Positions 1 through 8,139 of a DNA stretch of 8,139 nucleotides are shown here, in pieces. Below the pieces are notes generated by a model. It worked only from the letters and a program-made list of their open reading frames with translations. It did not search any database and had not been told where the DNA came from. A program made the position numbers and the translations under genes. This DNA is from a virus (lineage: Duplodnaviria > Heunggongvirae > Uroviricota > Caudoviricetes): positions 1 through 8,139 of the IMG/VR virus record IMGVR_UViG_2554235185_000004; one strand, 5' to 3'. Every line of letters starts with the position of its first letter. Position 1 is the first letter of the stretch.

Positions 1-722
1 GCGCAATGGTGTTGTGCTGGCACTGCGACAACCAGCTGCGCGACCAGACCTCCGAATCACTCGGGCAACTTGCTCACCAAAACCTGTCTGCATGGATGAT
101 TGACGTCATACGCCATGCAATGAATGGCTCGCAGGAACGGGAATTATCGCTGGCTGAATTATCCTGGTGGGCGGTCCGCAATCAGGTGGCGGACGCGCTA
201 CCGGAAGCGGTATTACGTCGTTCGCTGGGGTTGCGTGCGGAAAAAATCCGCTCAATGTACCGTGAAAGCGACATCGTACCGGGAGAGCAGACCGCCACCA
301 GCATACTGAAACAGCGCACAAAAAATCTTGCGCCGCTGCCTCACGCCCACCAGCAACAGAACCCACCACAGGAAAAGACGGTGGTCAGCATTGCCGTTGA
401 TCCGGAATCTCCGGCTCAGTATCTCCAGCGCCAGAAACCACAACGGGAAGAGATGCCTGTATACACGCGCTGGGTAAAAACGCAGAAATGCATGACGTGT
501 GGCAATCAGGCAGATGATCCGCATCACATCATTGGTCATGGACTGGGAGGGATGGGAACAAAGGCTGACGATTTGTTTGTTATTCCGCTGTGTCGTAAAT
601 GCCATAACGAACTACACGCCGGGGTAAAAGATTTTGAAGAAAAACACGGTAGTCAGTTGTTGTTGCTGATTCGTTTTTTAATGCACGCGAGAAATTCGGG
701 TGTTCTGAAGTGGAAAGCATAA
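1..722 (+). CDS. NinG/DUF968-like protein with a C-terminal HNH-type Cys/His (zinc-finger nuclease-like) motif; probably 5'-partial
   Basis: Reading frame is open from the window edge (first ATG at 6) to TAA at 720-722. C-terminal region has CxxC ... HH ... CxxCH ... H (CMTCGNQADDPHHIIGHG...CRKCHNELH), as in NinG/YdfU-type nin-region proteins. Sits immediately upstream of rusA, as in lambdoid nin regions. Confidence 0.6.
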   Translation, partial: AMVLCWHCDNQLRDQTSESLGQLAHQNLSAWMIDVIRHAMNGSQERELSLAELSWWAVRNQVADALPEAVLRRSLGLRAEKIRSMYRESDIVPGEQTATSILKQRTKNLAPLPHAHQQQNPPQEKTVVSIAVDPESPAQYLQRQKPQREEMPVYTRWVKTQKCMTCGNQADDPHHIIGHGLGGMGTKADDLFVIPLCRKCHNELHAGVKDFEEKHGSQLLLLIRFLMHARNSGVLKWKA

Positions 723-1091
723 ATGACCGAACGCATAGAATTTGTTTTGCCTTACTCGCCGACGGTGAACACTTACTGGCGACGCCGTGGCAGCACATAT
801 TTTGTATCAAAAGCCGGGGAGCGTTATCGCCGGGCAGTGGCGCTTATTGTTCGCCAGCAGCGACTGAAATTAAGCCTGTCCGGACGGCTGGCAATAAAAA
901 TTATTGCAGAGCCACCGGATAAGCGTCGTCGTGACCTGGACAATATTCTGAAAGCACCACTGGATGCGCTGACGCACGCGGGGTTGTTAATGGACGATGA
1001 GCAGTTTGATGAAATCAATATTGTACGTGGCCAGCCAGTATCTGGTGGACGGCTGGAGATAAGAATTACAGAGGTGGGTGTGCATGAATAA
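723..1091 (+). CDS. rusA: Crossover junction endodeoxyribonuclease RusA (Holliday junction resolvase)
   Basis: 122-aa ORF. Shares conserved blocks with remembered E. coli RusA (PDKRRRDLDNILKAPLDALTHAGLLMDDEQ and GGRLEIRITE versus [30 protein letters not shown] and GGRLELTITE). ATG directly follows the upstream stop (TAAATG), with GGAAAG upstream. Confidence 0.9.
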   Translation: MTERIEFVLPYSPTVNTYWRRRGSTYFVSKAGERYRRAVALIVRQQRLKLSLSGRLAIKIIAEPPDKRRRDLDNILKAPLDALTHAGLLMDDEQFDEINIVRGQPVSGGRLEIRITEVGVHE

Positions 1092-1773
1092 CCAGTATTT
1101 ACAGTTTGTTCGTGAGCAACTCATGATTGCCACTGCAGATCTCAGTGGGTCGACAAAATGCCAGCTGGAAGCCTGGCAGGAAAATGCCCTGTTCGATACA
1201 GGGCGTTACAGACGCAAAAAAATTCGTTACCGCGATGAGGTAACCGGAAAAATGATCACGCGGGATAATCCCCCGATCCAGGGTAAACAATCACTGGCGA
1301 AAGGCTCATCAATTGCGCTGGTCAGTCCTGTTGAGTTTGCAACATCATCGTGGCGGCGTGCTGTTCTGGAACTGGAAGAACATCAGAAGGCGTGGTTGTT
1401 GTGGTGTTATGGCGGAAACATTTGCTGGGAGCATCAGATCGCGATAACGCAGTGGGGGTGGAGTGAATTTAAAACTCAGTCCGGCTCCAGAAAAATTGCA
1501 GTGAAAACGCTGGAGCGTGTGAAGAAGTTGATCTGGCTGGCGGCACAGGATGTCAGAGGATGGGTTACCGGGTGTGAGGTCTACCAGAGACAGGAGCTTG
1601 CCAGACTGTGTGGAGTTAAGCCTGATAACTGGAGCCATAATTATGCGAACTACTGGCGTGAGATGTGCGATATTTTTAAGCGCCTCGATAGAGAATCCTT
1701 GATTTGCTCCGTGAAAATAAGAGCGCAACAAAAAGCGACCTTTTCACGACGAGATATTGCAAAAGTCAATTAA
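1084..1773 (+). CDS. Putative late-gene antitermination protein Q (assigned mainly by position)
   Basis: 229-aa ORF from ATG 1084 (GAGGTG Shine-Dalgarno at 1071-1076; an alternative GTG lies at 1078), overlapping the rusA stop. Lies between rusA and a promoter-plus-terminator pair that precedes the lysis genes. I could not match the sequence to a specific Q family by eye. Confidence 0.5.
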   Translation: MNNQYLQFVREQLMIATADLSGSTKCQLEAWQENALFDTGRYRRKKIRYRDEVTGKMITRDNPPIQGKQSLAKGSSIALVSPVEFATSSWRRAVLELEEHQKAWLLWCYGGNICWEHQIAITQWGWSEFKTQSGSRKIAVKTLERVKKLIWLAAQDVRGWVTGCEVYQRQELARLCGVKPDNWSHNYANYWREMCDIFKRLDRESLICSVKIRAQQKATFSRRDIAKVN

Positions 1774-1800
1774 ATCGCGTATGTTTCGTATAAATCTGAT
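1757..1800 (+). promoter_or_regulatory. Candidate late promoter (PR'-like) with tandem -10-like hexamers
   Basis: TTGCAA (1757-1762), 17-bp spacer, TATGTT (1780-1785), then a second -10-like TATAAA (1789-1794). Located directly after the putative Q stop and upstream of a strong terminator, as for lambda PR'/qut/tR'. Confidence 0.3.
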
Positions 1801-1834
1801 ATTTTGCCGATTTTGTACGTGATGGCAAAGTAAG

Positions 1835-1862
1835 AAAAAACCACCGCCAGGTGGTTTTTTTT
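1835..1862 (+). terminator. Intrinsic terminator (tR'-like) downstream of putative Q
   Basis: A6 then CCACC (1841-1845), loop GCCA, GGTGG (1850-1854), then T8 (1855-1862). A/T flanks make it potentially bidirectional. Confidence 0.7.
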
Positions 1863-2183
1863 ATGTCCGAAAATCGCGTCAGTACAGTAAACGCGCTGGT
1901 GGTTGCGAATACGGGTCTTTCAGCTTGCCGGCTTTTTCGACAAGAGTTATTGGTATGTCACGTTAACCGGAAAAGGGAAAAAGACATGCTAAAACAGCAG
2001 GATATGACAGAAGCCGCCAGAGTGGTGTTTAATGAATTAAGCGTTACCGACCCGGCGACAGTCAGGGAGATTGCACAGAATACTTACCTTTCACGCGAAC
2101 GCTGCCAGTTAATACTGACCCAGCTTGTTATGGCGGGTCTGGCAGACTATCAGTTTGGTTGTTACAGACACCTTCAGTCCTGA
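1863..2183 (+). CDS. Hypothetical small protein (moron candidate); alternative start ATG 1986 gives 65 aa
   Basis: ORF from ATG 1863 (106 aa), or from ATG 1986 with a purine-rich AAGGG Shine-Dalgarno. Its TGA stop is embedded in a hairpin followed by a T-run (2171-2197). No homolog recognised. Confidence 0.4.
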   Translation: MSENRVSTVNALVVANTGLSACRLFRQELLVCHVNRKREKDMLKQQDMTEAARVVFNELSVTDPATVREIAQNTYLSRERCQLILTQLVMAGLADYQFGCYRHLQS

Positions 2184-2197
2184 AGGCTTTTTTATTT
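2171..2197 (+). terminator. Intrinsic terminator at the end of the small gene
   Basis: CCTTCA (2171-2176), loop GTCC, TGAAGG (2181-2186), followed by CTTTTTTATTT. Confidence 0.55.
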
Positions 2198-2497
2198 GTG
2201 GTAAATGGGCGGCTGGTGGGTGTGGTGGTTGTTGCTTTCCCGTTGCTGAAAAAGAAAACGCCAGACTGTTAGCCGGGTATCAGTTAGCGGGAGAAATTTT
2301 TAAATACTTCACAATTCAGGCGGTTGACTGTTGTCTGGTTTGCGGGGAGTTTGTTAAAAGAAACTGGCATGGTGAATCCCCCTGTGCGGAGGGGCAATCA
2401 GCGAGTAGGTATATGGGATAATCGCGGATTCAGGTGCTGGTACTGAATTCACCGGGAGGCACCCGGCACCATGCAATGGCACATAGCGCCACTCTCC

Positions 2498-2526
2498 AGC
2501 CCCTCTCCGGAGGGGCTGTTTATATT
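2498..2526 (+). terminator. GC-rich perfect hairpin with downstream T-rich tract (terminator-like, + orientation)
   Basis: AGCCCCTC (2498-2505), loop TCCG, GAGGGGCT (2510-2517), followed by GTTTATATTGATTTTG. A smaller hairpin CCGGG/CCCGG lies at 2452-2466. Confidence 0.5.
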
Positions 2527-2552
2527 GATTTTGTCAGATGTGAGTAAACTCC

Positions 2553-2888
2553 TTATGGACTTTGTTGTTTTAGCCCATAAGGACATATTTGCAGAGTGCA
2601 ACGGTTATTAAAGCATTCATTCAATACGTTATCTGTATTTGTAGGGCATTCCTGGCTGTTTTTGATTAAATTCCAGAATGTTTTATTGAATGGTACTACG
2701 TTGTAAATGGTTACAGGTAGCACTTTGTTATTGAGCATGATACCTGTGTGAGTCAGTGTAAATATACTTTCAGGAGGTAAGAAAGCATCCGATTGATACC
2801 AGATTATTAATTTTATTTTACTCCATATGACTGAAAAAGATATTCCGCATGATGGCTGGATAACTGTATCAATCACAATCCACTTCAT
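2553..2888 (-). CDS. Hypothetical protein encoded in an AT-rich island
   Basis: 111-aa minus-strand ORF with a good Shine-Dalgarno (AAGGAAA about 4 nt upstream of ATG at 2888-2886). Lies inside a visibly AT-rich block (about 2530-3130) that contrasts with flanking phage DNA. No homolog recognised. Confidence 0.45.
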
Positions 2889-3148
2889 TTAGTTTCCTTG
2901 TTTATGCCTTGCTGGTGATGTTCTGAAAAGTATAAATGATATTTTTGATTGTAAACCATAGAGCAGAATTATTTTTCTGATGTTGTTTATTGTTTATTTA
3001 AATGCAGGGTGGTTTATATCTCGTCTTGTAGTTTATCCATGCATATCTGCTTGATGATGAGGTTTTTATTTAAGGTATGGTTTTGTGTTTTTTCTGTATT
3101 ACATGTCAGGTATTTTAAAGAATCATTTTTCAGATGGTGGAAAGAACC

Positions 3149-3337
3149 ATGGCATTTAAACACTATGATGTTGTCAGGGCGGCGTCGCCGTCAGATCTTG
3201 CGGAAAAGCTGACACATAAACTGAAAGAGGGCTGGCAGCCGTTTGGTAGTCCGGTGGCCATAACCCCTTATACCCTGATGCAGGCGATTGCAGCAGAAGG
3301 TGATGTGGTGGTCAGTGGTGCAACTGAGCCGGAGTGA
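3149..3337 (+). pseudogene. DUF1737-like small ORF, possibly the N-terminal remnant of a larger (nanS-p esterase-like) prophage gene
   Basis: 62-aa ORF from ATG 3149 (GGTGGAAAG upstream), MAFKHYDVVRAASPSDLAEKLTHKLKEGWQPFGSPVAITPYTLMQAIAAEGD. From memory this resembles the DUF1737 N-terminal domain of prophage 9-O-acetylesterase genes located before S in Stx-type phages. Downstream DNA (3337-3492) is open in other frames but not this one, consistent with a frameshifted or truncated remnant. Confidence 0.4.
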
Positions 3338-3580
3338 TACTACGTCATCGTACTGGCCCGGCATTCCAGGCCATAAAAGACGGTCTGGCAGTGGGACTAA
3401 ATGCACTGACGCTGACGGATATTACCAAAAATGCAACGTATGGCGTTGAGATAGAAAGTCTGGTGCTGGAGATAAATGCACCGGCATCATCATAAAAAGT
3501 GAGCCAGTCAAATGGAAGGTATCGTTAAACTCACCGGTAGTGTCAGTGGGTCGTCTGAGACGCCTGCATGAGTTATCAGA

Positions 3581-3612
3581 GCCATCAGTACTTAACTGGT
3601 GGCTTTTTTATT
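3581..3612 (+). terminator. Intrinsic terminator immediately upstream of the holin gene
   Basis: GCCATCAG (3581-3588), loop TACTTAA, CTGGTGGC (3596-3603; one G-U wobble), followed by TTTTTTATTG. Confidence 0.55.
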
Positions 3613-3644
3613 GTTGTCAGCTTCCGGATAACGGGAGACGGGGT

Positions 3645-3860
3645 ATGTACCAGATGGAAAAAATCACAACAGGTGTGTCATACACCACGTCAGCGGTGGG
3701 AACGGGCTACTGGTTCCTGCAGTTGCTGGACAGGGTTTCCCCGTCTCAGTGGGCGGCAATAGGCGTGCTGGGGAGTCTGCTGTTTGGGCTGCTGACATAT
3801 CTGACTAACCTGTATTTCAAAATCAAAGAGGACCGGCGTAAGGCGGCGCGGGGAGAGTAA
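3645..3860 (+). CDS. S: Class II holin, phage 21 S21-type pinholin (EssD-like), with dual-start motif
   Basis: 71 aa, [71 protein letters not shown]. Near-identical by memory to S21/EssD pinholins (two transmembrane domains, charged C-terminus). GGGAGA Shine-Dalgarno at 3633-3638. Met1 and Met4 give the dual-start arrangement. Confidence 0.9.
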
Positions 3861-3864
3861 AGTG

Positions 3865-4755
3865 ATGAATAAAAAATATGAACTGGTTGTTAAGGGGATA
3901 AATAATTACGGGGATAAGGTTACTGTTACTGTGAAGTCGGAAGGTGACGGGCAAGCGTCGCTGTTGTTGCCAGATGTGGCGATTAGTCTTGACCGTACTG
4001 AAGGTGCCACGCTGGAGTTTTACGAAGCTGAGGCGAAAAAGCAGGCGAAGCAGTTTTTCATGGATGTTGCTGCCGGGTTATGTGAATGGAACGAACCGTT
4101 GCCGGAAAAGCGCCCCGTAATTTTAGAGGCGCAGGATGTGTTGATAACCTACAAAGGAAAGCTACCGGGAAGAATTACTTGTTCTCTGAAGATGCCGCCG
4201 TCAACACTGCGGTCAGAAAAAGATGATGTTGAATCACGTATTGAAAAACTGGAGAGCTACGTCGTTGAGCTGAATAAGAAATGGTCGATATTGGTGCCTT
4301 CTGGCGATGAAAAGCAGTTTGCTGCGTTTGACGATTATTGTCGGAAAGTGATGAGCAGAAATCTCGCAGAGTGTTTCAGTATTCATAATGATAATTTCAG
4401 TGACCCGGAATGGGAGTGTAACCGGCCATCCTTTGTTGTATCCGGTGATGCTGGGAAAATAACCATCTCAGAAAATGGGAAAGTAACACCTCCATCGCAC
4501 CAGCACAGTGAGGAGCTCATTGAATTTGCCATTGATTACCTGAAGAACAATAAAAAGCAGGGGCTGATGAAGCGCGTTGGCCGTTGCATGGGATATCTTC
4601 AGGTAGCCGCTGAGATTGAAGCGCTGGCCAGTGGTGCTGATAAGGATGCAATTGTGCGGGAGGCTCTTCTTCGTGATTTTAATACTCCACCCTTTAAAAA
4701 AGTGCCGGCTTACTGGCTTCATCCGGGGCTGACTTATCTTAAAGTGCGTATTTAG
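3865..4755 (+). CDS. Hypothetical 296-aa soluble protein inserted between holin and endolysin (unknown function)
   Basis: Long ORF from ATG 3865 (GTG at 3862 also in frame), with GGGGAGAG Shine-Dalgarno lying in the 3' end of the holin gene and the start 5 nt after the holin stop (translational coupling). No signal peptide or transmembrane segment seen, and no motif I recognise. Confidence 0.75.
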   Translation: MNKKYELVVKGINNYGDKVTVTVKSEGDGQASLLLPDVAISLDRTEGATLEFYEAEAKKQAKQFFMDVAAGLCEWNEPLPEKRPVILEAQDVLITYKGKLPGRITCSLKMPPSTLRSEKDDVESRIEKLESYVVELNKKWSILVPSGDEKQFAAFDDYCRKVMSRNLAECFSIHNDNFSDPEWECNRPSFVVSGDAGKITISENGKVTPPSHQHSEELIEFAIDYLKNNKKQGLMKRVGRCMGYLQVAAEIEALASGADKDAIVREALLRDFNTPPFKKVPAYWLHPGLTYLKVRI

Positions 4756-4791
4756 TGGGCCAGGGACAGCGGCTGAATATTTAATATATCC

Positions 4792-5325
4792 ATGAACACC
4801 AAAATCAAATACGGCCTGTCGGCTGCCGTTCTGGCGCTGATTGCCGCTGGTGCGCCTGCGCCTGACATTCTCGACCAGTTTCTGGATGAAAAGGAAGGCA
4901 ACCACACCACGGCATACCGTGATGGTGCAGGTATCTGGACCATCTGCCGTGGTGCCATCATGGTGGATGGCAAACCTGTCGTTCCGGGCATGAAGTTGTC
5001 GAAGGAAAAATGCGACCAGGTTAACGCCATTGAGCGTGATAAAGCGCTGGCGTGGGTGGAGAAAAACATCAGAGTGCCGCTGACCGAACCCCAGAAAGCG
5101 GGGATCGCGTCATTCTGTCCGTACAACATTGGTCCCGGTAAGTGTTTCCCGTCGACGTTTTACAGACGAATTAATGCTGGTGATCGAAAAGGTGCCTGCG
5201 AAGCGATTCGCTGGTGGATTAAGGACGGTGGCAGAGACTGCCGTATTCGTTCAAACAACTGTTACGGTCAGGTATCCCGTCGTGACCAGGAGAGCGCGCT
5301 GGCGTGCTGGGGTATCGACAGATAA
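4792..5325 (+). CDS. R: SAR endolysin (phage lysozyme, T4/P22-type glycoside hydrolase family 24, R21-like)
   Basis: 177 aa. N-terminal Gly/Ala-rich weakly hydrophobic signal-anchor-release segment (KYGLSAAVLALIAAGAPAP). Catalytic E...D...T spacing (EGNHTTAYRDGAGIWTICRG) typical of P22/21-type lysozymes. A SAR endolysin is the expected partner of a pinholin. Confidence 0.9.
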   Translation: MNTKIKYGLSAAVLALIAAGAPAPDILDQFLDEKEGNHTTAYRDGAGIWTICRGAIMVDGKPVVPGMKLSKEKCDQVNAIERDKALAWVEKNIRVPLTEPQKAGIASFCPYNIGPGKCFPSTFYRRINAGDRKGACEAIRWWIKDGGRDCRIRSNNCYGQVSRRDQESALACWGIDR

Positions 5326-5481
5326 GCAGAATATTTTGCTGAAAAATGAGGAATGGCCACGCGGGCGGATAACACGAAATCCTGCGAACTGGCGAAACGT
5401 AAGTGAATAAAAGTAAAAACCCCGTTTGTTGGCACCAAGCGAGGTTTTGTGTTTCTGACCTTGAGTAAGGCAAGGGAGAAC

Positions 5482-5664
5482 ATGGCGAAGTGTAAACGAA
5501 TTCTGTTGAGGTTGACTATGAAAAATGGCCTTGAACTGAAAGCGCCTGTAACTGATGACATCAGCAGAGCACTGGCTTTTGCCATTAAGTGGGTGGCGGT
5601 CGGTGTTGCTGTGTCCCCGATGCTGTATGGGCTGGCAAAACTGGTCATTGCGTTGAAATCGTGA
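5482..5664 (+). CDS. Hypothetical small protein (60 aa) with hydrophobic C-terminal segment
   Basis: ATG 5482 preceded by AGGGAG (5473-5478). Sequence [60 protein letters not shown] has a basic N-terminus and a hydrophobic C-terminal stretch. Located between the endolysin and Rz. Confidence 0.4.
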
Positions 5665-5678
5665 AGGGAGGATTAAGC

Positions 5679-5810
5679 ATGTCAGACAAACTCATAACGC
5701 TGGCGAAGATCCTCTGTGTAATTGTCGGCATTTCATTTTCACTAATGCTGGTTGCTCTTTTTCTTTCCATGGCCTGGATGATGTTGTCTTCGTCGGGGTT
5801 GCTGGGGTGA
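5679..5810 (+). CDS. Hypothetical small single-pass membrane protein (43 aa)
   Basis: ATG 5679 preceded by a strong GGGAGG Shine-Dalgarno (5665-5670). [43 protein letters not shown] is almost entirely one transmembrane helix. Its TGA (5808-5810) overlaps a GTG at 5807 that begins the Rz frame (GTGA coupling). Confidence 0.45.
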
Positions 5811-6280
5811 ACATAAACCGAATGCTTTCCGCGTTTATCGTTATTCTGCTGGTGGCCTGTGGTGCGCTGTGGATGGCAACAGACCATTACCGTGATAACG
5901 CGATTACCTACAAAGCGCAGCGCGATAACAAAGCCAGTGAACTGAAGCTGGCGAACGCAACCATTACTGATATGCAGGTGCGCCAGCGCGATGTTGCTGC
6001 GCTCGATGCAAAATACTCGAGGGAATTAGCCGATGCGAGAGCTGAAAATGAAACTCTTCGCGCTGACGTTGCCGCTGGTCGTAAGCGCCTGCGGATCAAC
6101 GCCACCTGTCCAGGCTCCGTGCGTGAAGCCCCCACCACCTCCGGCGTGGATAATGCAACCGGCCCCCAACTGGCAGACACCGTTACACGGGATTATTTCA
6201 CCCTCAGAGAGCGGCTGATGACGATGCACAAGCAACTGGAAGGGGCACAGGACTATATCCGCACTCAGTGCCTGAAATAA
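5807..6280 (+). CDS. Rz: Rz, inner-membrane spanin subunit (i-spanin)
   Basis: Strong similarity by memory to RzpD (shared [44 protein letters not shown]). N-terminal transmembrane segment followed by a coiled-coil-like periplasmic domain. Start could be GTG 5807 or ATG 5822. Confidence 0.88.
6033..6218 (+). CDS. Rz1: Rz1, outer-membrane lipoprotein spanin subunit (o-spanin), embedded in the +1 frame of Rz
   Basis: 61-aa ORF wholly inside Rz in another frame. Lipobox VVSAC, then a proline-rich mature region with [14 protein letters not shown], as in RzoD/Rz1. Alternative start at ATG 6048. Confidence 0.85.
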
Positions 6281-6590
6281 GTTTTGTTGATGCGCCGTAT
6301 CGTCGCTATATTCCCTCATTAACAGAGACCGCAGCCCGACAGGGAGACTCCTCTGCGCGAGTGTGCGGGGATAATTAAAAACGATGCACACCGGGTTTTT
6401 ACCGCGTTAATGATTCGCGGGTTTATCCCGGTGCGATGGTGGAAGAAACAGGAAGCTGTATTACAGAAAGTGCTACTACTGTATCCCGATGCGATGTATG
6501 TAATGTGAGTCAGATAATGGCACAGGATGTGGTGATGTGGCAGTCTGGAACACAGGATATATTGTCAGAATAAGACCCGTAGGAATAAAA

Positions 6591-6917
6591 ATGAAAAGAC
6601 GCCTTTTACTACTTTTTCTGTTATCTGTCCTGGCAGTGGGATGCTCGCAGCAAAAAGCTGATGAGCCCCGGCAATTAGTGACGGTGTATCCACGATATCC
6701 GGAATATGCTGCAGCAAATTATATCAAGGGGCTGGTTGAGGTTAAGTTCGATATTGGTGCTGATGGGACTGTGACACGGATCGTTTTTCTCCGCTCAGAG
6801 CCTCATAATTTGTTTCGTGATGAAGTGGTGAAGGCCATGGCGAAATGGCGATTTGAAAAGAATCGCCCCTGTCAGGGAGTGAAGAGACAATTTATCTTTA
6901 CGCCGTCACGTCCTTGA
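6591..6917 (+). CDS. Lipoprotein with TonB C-terminal-like domain (moron)
   Basis: ATG 6591 with AGGAA Shine-Dalgarno. Signal peptide plus lipobox (MKRRLLLLFLLSVLAVGC, Ser at +2). Mature region PRYPEYAAANYIKGLVEVKFDIGADGTVTRIVFLRSEPHNLFRDEVVKAMAKWRFE aligns by eye with the E. coli TonB C-terminal domain [56 protein letters not shown]. Preceded by about 310 bp of non-coding DNA. Confidence 0.75.
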   Translation: MKRRLLLLFLLSVLAVGCSQQKADEPRQLVTVYPRYPEYAAANYIKGLVEVKFDIGADGTVTRIVFLRSEPHNLFRDEVVKAMAKWRFEKNRPCQGVKRQFIFTPSRP

Positions 6918-7008
6918 TGCTTCCAGGTAGAGAGGGGCTGGACGCAGGAGAAAAATGAAAGAGCCAGCGGTTATATTTTTGTCATGGCTGACGAGGAATG
7001 ATGGAAGA

Positions 7009-7058
7009 AGGCGTTGTATGCCACACAACGCCTCACTGTTCATTTCTTCTTTTTCTCT
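7009..7058. terminator. Hairpin between convergent genes (possible bidirectional terminator)
   Basis: AGGCGTTGT (7009-7017), loop ATGCCAC, ACAACGCCT (7025-7033), a perfect 9-bp stem. T-rich tract TTCATTTCTTCTTTTTCTC follows on the + strand after a short spacer; the U-tract on the minus side is weaker. The T-rich tract overlaps the last codons and stop (7040-7042) of the minus-strand ORF. Confidence 0.4.
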
Positions 7059-7219
7059 GGTGGAACCCGATGAATAAGAGTTGCACTGGTTTCCGATGAG
7101 ATGGCGATATACTCGGGCAAAGTATGCTGGCAGTTTTCCAACTGGTCAAAAATACCTGCTCTCGTCTGTTGCAATGCCTGCAGCATGCGGCGGCAATGCG
7201 CCTTGCTTTTACTAACCAT
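7040..7219 (-). CDS. Hypothetical small protein (59 aa; the longer 117-aa frame to 7393 is less likely)
   Basis: Internal ATG at 7219 is preceded on the minus strand by a strong GAGGAAGGAAAG Shine-Dalgarno. The extension up to 7393 is proline-rich and overlaps the upstream gene in another frame. Product MVSKSKAHCRRMLQALQQTRAGIFDQLENCQHTLPEYIAISSETSATLIHRVPPEKKKK is not recognised. Confidence 0.35.
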   Translation of the reverse strand: MVSKSKAHCRRMLQALQQTRAGIFDQLENCQHTLPEYIAISSETSATLIHRVPPEKKKK

Positions 7220-7280
7220 CTTTCCTTCCTCTATCAGTCGCTGCGTGAACTCATCATGTAATACCAGGTAAATGCGGATG

Positions 7281-7532
7281 TTATCGGTTTTGGCTACGCA
7301 GCATAGTACAAAACGGACAGGTGCATCCCGGGACGGGGGAGGCGTCACATGTCCCTGTGATGGTTGTTCCGGGTAATGCACTGTGTGGGGCATAAAAATG
7401 TCCGATAATTTTACTTTCTACCGCAGTTAGTTGATTCGTTGGTCCTGGTAGCACATTGGGCGAGGATTTAAATGCCAGGCAACTGAAGGATGATGTTGCA
7501 AGGGAGATAGCGAGAATATTTCTGATTTTCAT
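7281..7532 (-). CDS. Small secreted, cysteine-rich protein or lipoprotein (signal peptide MKIRNILAISLATSSFSC), Bor-position moron
   Basis: Minus-strand ATG at 7532 with a GAGG-containing Shine-Dalgarno. Classic N-terminal signal peptide with a possible lipobox (SSFSC) or signal peptidase I site. Mature part has 5 Cys (TGTCDASPVPGCTCPFC). Same location and orientation as lambda bor, but not Bor-like by sequence. Confidence 0.5.
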   Translation of the reverse strand: MKIRNILAISLATSSFSCLAFKSSPNVLPGPTNQLTAVESKIIGHFYAPHSALPGTTITGTCDASPVPGCTCPFCTMLRSQNR

Positions 7533-7668
7533 TTGATGATGCCTCTGTGTGAAATGACGGTAAACGACGCACTTGTGCCGGCACATAATAGCAAGCACCA
7601 TAATAGATCAGATTCGATTCTTGCTGTAAGTGATAATTATTCTCGTTTTCGGGTCCTTTCCGTCGATC

Positions 7669-7704
7669 CAACAGGTTACGGGGCGGCGACCTCGCGGGTT
7701 TTCG
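7669..7704. other. cos: cosN, cohesive-end site (12-nt cohesive end GGGCGGCGACCT at 7681-7692)
   Basis: CGATCCAACAGGTTACG|GGGCGGCGACCTCGCGGGTTTTCGCTATTTATGAAAATTTTCCGG matches the joined right and left ends of the lambda genome almost base for base (from memory). Lies about 180 bp upstream of nu1. Confidence 0.85.
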
Positions 7705-7728
7705 CTATTTATGAAAATTTTCCGGGGA

Positions 7729-7845
7729 AAATCATGTCGGTACTTCTCGAACATAACTATTTGTTTTTTCTAATATCGAATCCGTAAAAGGTCCGACATG
7801 AAAACGCCTAAAAAAGTCATTTTCGGGCACTTTCATGTCGGCCCC
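7729..7845. promoter_or_regulatory. cosB-like region with three copies of a TCATGTCGG element (candidate Nu1 R sites)
   Basis: CATGTCGG at 7733-7740 (+) and 7834-7841 (+), and its inverse CCGACATG at 7793-7800, with AT-rich spacers. Position between cosN and nu1 matches lambda cosB, but the sequence differs from lambda here. Confidence 0.45.
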
Positions 7846-7867
7846 TGTATTTATTGTGAGACTGTTT

Positions 7868-8139
7868 CATGAAGGTTAATAAAAAGAAACTTGCCGAAAT
7901 TTTCAACGTGGATCCGCGAACGATTGAACGCTGGCAGTCTCAGGGACTCCCTTGCGTCTCCGGAGGTGGTAAGGGCGTTGAATCTGTATTTGATACCGCC
8001 ATGGCAATTCAGTGGTATGCGCAGAGGGAAGCTGATATCGAAAATGAAAAACTCCGTAAAGAGGTTGAGGATTACAGGGCTGCCAGTGAGGCAGATCTCC
8101 AGCCTGGGACTATTGAGTACGAACGCCATCGACTTACGC
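7868..8139 (+). CDS. nu1: Terminase small subunit Nu1 (gp1), 5' portion; continues beyond the window
   Basis: ATG 7868, open to the window end. [90 protein letters not shown] closely parallels lambda Nu1 (MEVNKKQLADIF...GGGKG...[33 protein letters not shown]), with a diverged helix-turn-helix segment. Confidence 0.9.

Follow-up and report, generated by a model that had tools for sequence, protein, structure and literature searches.

The DNA analyzed here (the window, positions 1 to 8,139 of IMG/VR virus record IMGVR_UViG_2554235185_000004) spans the part of a lambdoid prophage that holds its late-regulatory and lysis genes (Table 1). On the plus strand, the order is a DUF968/HNH gene cut at the window start, rusA, the late antiterminator gene Q, a short terminated region, a 66-amino-acid (aa) winged-helix-like open reading frame (ORF), and the small RNA (sRNA) STnc100, followed by an AT-rich island, DUF1737, a class II holin, a DUF1327 ORF, lysozyme, Rz/Rz1, a TonB_C lipoprotein, and cos. 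No tRNA genes were found in the window. This gene order places the island inside the Q-dependent late transcription unit, with its gene facing against that unit. An initial annotation, made from the sequence, had proposed such an antisense arrangement within the late operon, and this was borne out. The island gene, iraL, lies on the minus strand, with Q on one side and the genes for the holin, lysozyme, and Rz on the other; all of these are plus-strand genes.

Table 1. Coordinates of the iraL cassette, its neighbors in the window, and the paralogous loci of Stx2 phages
Feature	Position	Strand	Basis and remarks
Late antiterminator Q	1084..1773	+	PF06323, E = 2e-82; PGAP, strain 7/2; start of late region upstream of island
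Short pR'-proximal transcript to tR'-like terminator (probable)	1783..1862	+	Hairpin 1835-1860, then T run
STnc100 prophage sRNA	2338..2527	+	RF02076, 132 bits (gathering score 47), E = 9e-30; convergent with iraL
iraL cassette, AT-rich variable segment	~2477..3148		BLAST and alignment breakpoints, GC; 672 bp, 34.8% GC
iraL coding sequence, RssB anti-adaptor	2553..2888	-	111 aa plus stop, ATG start; identity to CFT073 IraL, NF007393, PDB 8twd
iraL 5' UTR	2889..2921	-	Published 5'RACE
iraL core promoter	2929..2955	-	-10 TATACT (2934-2929); best -35-like TTTACA (2955-2950); spacer 15 nt
AT-rich DNA upstream of iraL, no gene assigned	2956..3148		GC ~29%
nanS-p/yjhS esterase remnant	3149..3495	+	PF08410, E = 4e-17; first late gene downstream of cassette
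Lysis block	3645..6280	+	Opposite strand to iraL
Class II holin	3645-3860	+	Lysis block
DUF1327/YdfR-like ORF	3862-4755	+	297 aa; DUF1327 in first ~100 residues
Lysozyme	4792-5325	+	Lysis block
Rz/Rz1	5822-6280 and 6033-6218	+	Lysis block
Paralog, phage 1717 (gp43)	L007:4001-4324
Paralog, phage 258-320 (ORF107)	L005:598-921

For the short region downstream of Q, terminator-like sites were detected at 1843-1855 (plus strand) and 1860-1835 (minus strand), together with weak, sub-threshold Rfam matches to isrK (the Gifsy-1 pR' RNA), Phe_leader, and STnc370. It probably corresponds to the prophage's constitutive short pR'-tR' transcript, for which we infer the position of the promoter. The 66-aa ORF that follows (1986-2183) gave a weak TrmB-like winged-helix match (E = 0.003), with a terminator at 2171-2186. 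It is kept at 89 to 94% in many Stx2 phages and phiP27, some records of which name it a TrmB family regulator.

The island had been recognized by eye at 2530-3130, with a compositional contrast to its flanks, and both the overall GC and the codon-position GC calculations agreed with that description. The GC content of 2530-3130 was 32.4% (0.324), versus a mean of 48.8% (sd, 2.7; minimum, 43.1%) in 6,266 overlapping 601-bp segments outside the island (z = -6.2). The sliding GC profile showed a single deep trough from ~2500 to 3150, and the 601-bp segment with the lowest GC in the whole sequence begins at 2519. For the ORF at 2553-2888, GC1/GC2/GC3 values of 0.35/0.35/0.34 were obtained, compared with a GC3 of 0.41 to 0.68 in eleven neighboring genes; the upstream DNA of iraL (2922-3148) had a GC content of 29.1%. 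The 111-aa minus-strand ORF and its good Shine-Dalgarno sequence were also as described, with AGGA at 2898-2895, 6 nt ahead of the ATG.

The limits of the segment were defined by comparison with phage JLK-2012, which has both flanks (2206-2483 at 91% and 3156-3368 at 97%) and, between them, an unrelated 171 bp instead of the 672 bp seen here. The resulting limits, ~2477 and ~3148, are slightly wider than the island seen by eye. As a discrete insertion that is absent from a related phage and has 32 to 35% GC versus 49%, the segment resembles a moron; it probably has a promoter of its own, whereas no terminator of its own was found. Thus, being discrete, compositionally foreign, and polymorphic between phages, the 672-bp segment is classed as a moron, and since JLK-2012 does without it, it behaves as a classic one. 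Neither direct nor inverted terminal repeats were found at the cassette ends. The independent acquisition suggested by the initial annotation was therefore supported by the GC and GC3 contrast and by the presence/absence polymorphism relative to JLK-2012. Like the morons located between Q and S (stx, tRNAs, sRNAs), the cassette occupies a cargo hot spot; it shows foreign composition, presence/absence polymorphism between related phages, and a probable promoter of its own. In contrast to the stx moron, the iraL cassette faces against the late transcript and has no clear terminator. The exact moron boundaries and the antisense late-operon position beside the STnc100 sRNA are added here.

On the right, the cassette abuts a nanS-p/yjhS remnant in which an internal deletion of ~1.5 kb has spared the DUF1737 domain at the N terminus (3149-3337) plus a 3' fragment of 53 codons (3334-3495). 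PGAP marks this gene as "incomplete," and CFT073 has the same remnant. At the deletion junction, window positions 3156-3368 and 3353-3700 correspond to positions 2942-3154 and 4646-4993 (yjhS) of the JLK-2012 locus, with a 16-bp overlap. In the lysis block, PGAP reports only a truncated YdfR pseudogene at 3862-4755, so the rest of this ORF may be a fusion or frameshift product.

The minus-strand product was identical at all 111 residues to IraL of Escherichia coli CFT073 (WP_000871291.1). The same accession is annotated in CFT073 and in strain 7/2, the latter being a 100% match to the window. Many E. coli chromosomes match 2400-3250 at 100%, and the ORF is annotated there as "anti-adapter protein IraM." The NCBIfam model for IraM (NF007393), which stands for the IraM/IraL/RssC anti-adaptor family, matched residues 1-110 with 162 bits against a cutoff of 121; K-12 IraM was 62% identical to the window protein, and the IraM chain of PDB 8twd was matched with an E value of 9e-32. 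With a threshold of 95% identity to iraL of CFT073, promoter and 5' UTR included, the window gene belongs to the IraL clade rather than to IraM. Pfam scans of the ORF gave no match at E ≤ 0.01, nor up to E = 10, PmrD (PF11183) included, although PF11183 is the precomputed Pfam tag. The earlier statement that the product has no recognizable domain thus stands for Pfam and fails for NCBIfam. As the gene is iraL, a characterized member of the IraM family, the statement as a whole was wrong. The minus-strand gene of the island is an already characterized and prophage-borne gene, not a new one.

IraL was named by Hryckowian et al. in 2014 in uropathogenic E. coli CFT073 (PMC4045071). It is an anti-adaptor that blocks the adaptor RssB and thereby raises and stabilizes the stress sigma factor RpoS in log phase, roughly doubling the RpoS half-life from ~2.5 to ~5 min (PMC4045071). 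Binding of IraL to RssB was shown by two-hybrid assay and pull-down and involves only the N-terminal receiver domain; iraL is transcribed from a sigma-70-like promoter, and in both CFT073 and Shigella sonnei, log-phase RpoS fell when the gene was deleted (PMC4045071). The CFT073 locus was called the "potB genomic island," and the antisense late-operon position was not described in that report (PMC4045071).

The CFT073 locus shares with the window the protein, the 5' UTR and start (31 of 32 nt), and the STnc100-region and DUF1737 remnant/holin neighbors, with 98.7% DNA identity over window positions 2212-3700. Upstream of 2212 the two differ: in place of the window's PF06323 Q and small winged-helix ORF, CFT073 carries a different type of Q, an IS200, and three tRNAs. 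Three base changes also separate them within the promoter and 5' UTR. K-12 IraM (YcgW), an Mg2+-starvation anti-adaptor, shares family, fold, RssB contacts, and a Cys4 motif with IraL at 62% amino acid and 71% nucleotide identity, and no homology outside the coding sequence was found in the K-12 iraM flanks (next to e14). IraM is induced by stress and contacts both RssB domains, whereas IraL acts in unstressed log phase and binds the N-terminal domain only (PMC4045071, PMC10844676). IraL also has four more C-terminal residues than IraM.

For the transcription start, 5'RACE of CFT073 iraL gave the sequence ACATCACCAGCAAGGCATAAACAAGGAAAC(C/T)A (PMC4045071). The reported mRNA 5' end, ACATCACCAGCAAGGCATAAACAAGGAAACCA, is the reverse complement of window positions 2890-2921 at 31 of 32 nt, with a mismatch at 2891; therefore, transcription is assigned to start at 2921, giving a 5' UTR of 33 nt. 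The promoter hexamers (Table 1) were read off the sequence relative to this published start; a consensus promoter scan that required a spacer of 16 to 18 nt did not list them. The initial annotation had suggested that the AT-rich upstream DNA could hold the promoter of a lysogen-expressed gene, and the published start on the minus strand, with a TATACT -10 in place, agrees with this suggestion. The minus-strand transcript itself has been published for CFT073 iraL, and expression in the lysogen from its own promoter is supported by that 5'RACE start and by the lowered log-phase RpoS of the iraL deletion (PMC4045071).

Taken together, the island is very probably a moron cassette by which a lambdoid prophage carries iraL within its late region. 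In the lysogen, iraL would be transcribed during ordinary growth from its own sigma-70-type promoter, as shown for CFT073. As for the identical CFT073 protein, IraL would bind the receiver domain of RssB, so that RssB could not deliver RpoS to ClpXP; the RpoS half-life would about double, and RpoS would be raised already in log phase. In this way, a prophage would reset the general stress response of its host by raising RpoS in growing cells. The reading of a foreign, lysogen-expressed gene placed antisense in the late operon is thus supported, and the gene is the published and already known iraL.

A quite improbable alternative is that an intact iraL is a silent passenger, kept off by its promoter allele or by H-NS silencing of the 29 to 35% GC DNA. 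The 80 bp of promoter and 5' UTR are 96.3% identical to CFT073, with three differences at 2891, 2922, and 2949; JJ1886 has a second allele, iraL2, in which the -35 carries a point mutation (PMC4045071); and the DNA is very AT rich. Against our main explanation we also counted the short 15-nt spacer to the -35 hexamer and the lack of a canonical intrinsic terminator after iraL. However, the TATACT -10 and the TTTACA hexamer are unchanged relative to CFT073, and the window's promoter allele is the commonest, found exactly in 790 of 1443 iraL-positive genomes. The coding sequence has been kept identical to that of the functional protein, and CFT073 iraL is equally AT rich and yet expressed in log phase.

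The DNA upstream of iraL was also inspected for regulator sites. A PhoP-box-like repeat (TGTTTATTGTTTATTTA, one mismatch) is present at 2984-3000 and is partly conserved in the Stx2-phage paralog. The match was not significant (1 observed versus 0.16 expected; 30 of 200 shuffles gave at least 1), and the same pattern had no match upstream of PhoP-dependent K-12 iraM, so the pattern is not diagnostic. IraL was reported to be increased in a CFT073 fur mutant (PMC7157518). The best Fur-box match in 2889-3148 was 11/19, no better than shuffles (P = 0.95), and any effect of Fur on iraL is probably indirect.

At the 3' end, the minus strand beyond position 2553 gave no canonical intrinsic terminator (hairpin plus U tract) in the terminator scan, and the minus-strand hairpins at 2583-2550 and 2518-2497 carry no U tract. 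The STnc100 3' terminator hairpin (2497-2518) lies 35 nt past the iraL stop codon and, according to the alignment, is part of the variable cassette rather than of the conserved left flank. As iraL has no terminator of its own, its transcripts may enter STnc100 antisense, and the two could overlap. During lytic growth, Q-modified RNA polymerase from pR' would have to cross the cassette antisense to iraL. From this late antisense read-through we infer that iraL may be a lysogeny-phase function which convergent transcription could shut down, so that induction of the prophage might erase its expression.

The structure of IraL was predicted with AF2. With just 16 close homologs, the prediction reached a pLDDT of 37 and could not be used; 39 sequences were needed, and the 39-sequence family alignment gave a pLDDT of 84 overall and 86 to 97 across residues 1-80. 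The best Foldseek match in the PDB was the IraM chain 8twd_A (TM, 0.90; rmsd, 1.2 Å), followed by three PmrD structures (4hn7, 2jso, and 2rqx) at 14 to 21% identity. Residues 1-78 are thus predicted to form a PmrD-like antiparallel beta-barrel plus a helix, which agrees with IraM having been described as PmrD-like (PMC10844676). The IraM residues that contact RssB were taken from the crystal structure paper of the IraM-RssB complex (PMC10844676). In the IraL-IraM alignment, 10 of the 12 contact positions were identical (I4, I6, C14, F18, W22, K26, W30, I42, I61, and Y62), and the other two were conservative (T13S and L75I).

It is conceivable on these grounds, although very unlikely, that IraL acts mainly as a PmrD-like connector for a response regulator other than RssB. 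PmrD structures come next after IraM, the precomputed Pfam tag points the same way, and only the receiver domain of RssB is bound by IraL (PMC4045071). PmrD resembles IraL in its beta-barrel fold and in binding a receiver domain, where it stabilizes a phosphorylated-like state. In contrast to IraL, PmrD has no Cys4 tail, its partner is PmrA rather than RssB, and it is no more than distantly similar at 14 to 21% identity; the direct Pfam scans also returned no PmrD up to E = 10. RssB binding and RpoS stabilization have also been shown directly for the identical protein (PMC4045071), in line with an anti-adaptor role for IraL.

Beyond the barrel, the C terminus of IraL carries the Cys4 motif C-P-x(9-10)-C-x(4-5)-C-x4-C-P at C81, C92, C97, and C102; in its extended form, C-P-(G-N)-x7-8-C-x4-5-C-x4-C-P-Y/F-G, it spans residues 81-105, or window positions 2574-2648 on the minus strand. 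In the 39-sequence alignment, C81, C97, and C102 were conserved in 39/39 and C92 in 38/39. The only invariant residues were W72, C81, C97, and C102, with P103 at 38/39. On average, tail and core were equally conserved (0.44 and 0.46). The crystal structure was built on IraM residues 1-78, with the tail removed and called less conserved and flexible; full-length IraM was unstable and insoluble (PMC10844676). Added here is the observation that this tail, ignored by structural work, ranks as the most conserved feature of the family. The tail is a reasonable candidate for a zinc-binding or redox-sensitive element, which, if true, might control how stable or how active IraL and IraM are. The combined proposal that the Cys4 tail is a metal- or redox-sensing module and that the antisense slot makes a lysogeny-only switch of iraL is speculative, and we hold it to be more doubtful than probable.

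The iraL promoter and 5' region were found in 1443 of 5426 complete E. coli genomes (~27%), and any IraM-family gene in 4757 of 5426. The gene is overrepresented among uropathogenic E. coli and Shigella, and its biology was published in 2014. Four sequenced induced phages (vB_EcoS-640R1, 733R4, 716R1, and 813R8) have iraL in this same slot, where it runs antisense, flanked on one side by Q/STnc100 and on the other by the nanS-p remnant and the lysis genes. Both slot and antisense orientation are shared with CFT073 and, for a paralog, with Stx2 phages. A profile search of 1.84 billion representatives gave an Enterobacteriaceae-wide family of 48 clusters at E ≤ 1e-10, with members from Salmonella, Citrobacter, Enterobacter, Cronobacter, Kosakonia, and others. 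The IraM family is wider than reported. The same conservation, together with the published genetics, refutes the reading of the island as cis-regulatory late-operon DNA (a terminator or processing region) with an incidental ORF; although the island lies between terminators and the first late genes and STnc100 abuts it, related phages manage without the segment and the function of the ORF is experimentally established, leaving this reading a negligible chance.

The tblastn search revealed a third clade of the IraM family in 41 Stx2c/Stx2a phage records, where the gene is mostly unannotated. Its 107-aa product is 72 to 74% identical to IraL and 65% identical to IraM. In phages 1717 (gp43), 2851, and 258-320 (ORF107), the gene occupies the same slot as iraL, antisense and directly upstream of nanS-p. 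It differs from iraL in its length and in lying immediately downstream of stx2B. Between the STnc100-like 3' end and the point where DUF1737 begins, the whole module can be aligned with the window at ~71%, and TATAAT occurs where iraL has its -10. The slot common to iraL and this stx2-adjacent paralog is added here. No functional data on the paralog were found in our literature search. Shiga toxin-producing E. coli (STEC) isolates with high log-phase RpoS and without iraL have been described (PMC4045071), so the stx2-linked paralog would be an obvious candidate there. If true, it could explain the raised log-phase RpoS of iraL-less STEC.

Further observations concern the right part of the window. 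A lipoprotein-like ORF with a TonB_C domain (6591-6917, plus strand) lies where bor is normally found. Among Fur-box-like sequences in the window, the best, GAAAACGAGAATAATTATC (15/19), is at 7632-7650 on the minus strand, upstream of a minus-strand ORF (7281-7601) with a signal-peptide-like start. In a second AT-rich dip, positions 7680-7725 contain GGGCGGCGACCTCGCGGGTTTTCGCTATTTATGAAAATTTTCC, which we take to be a lambda-type cos. The terminase small subunit gene begins at ~7876 and runs off the window end.
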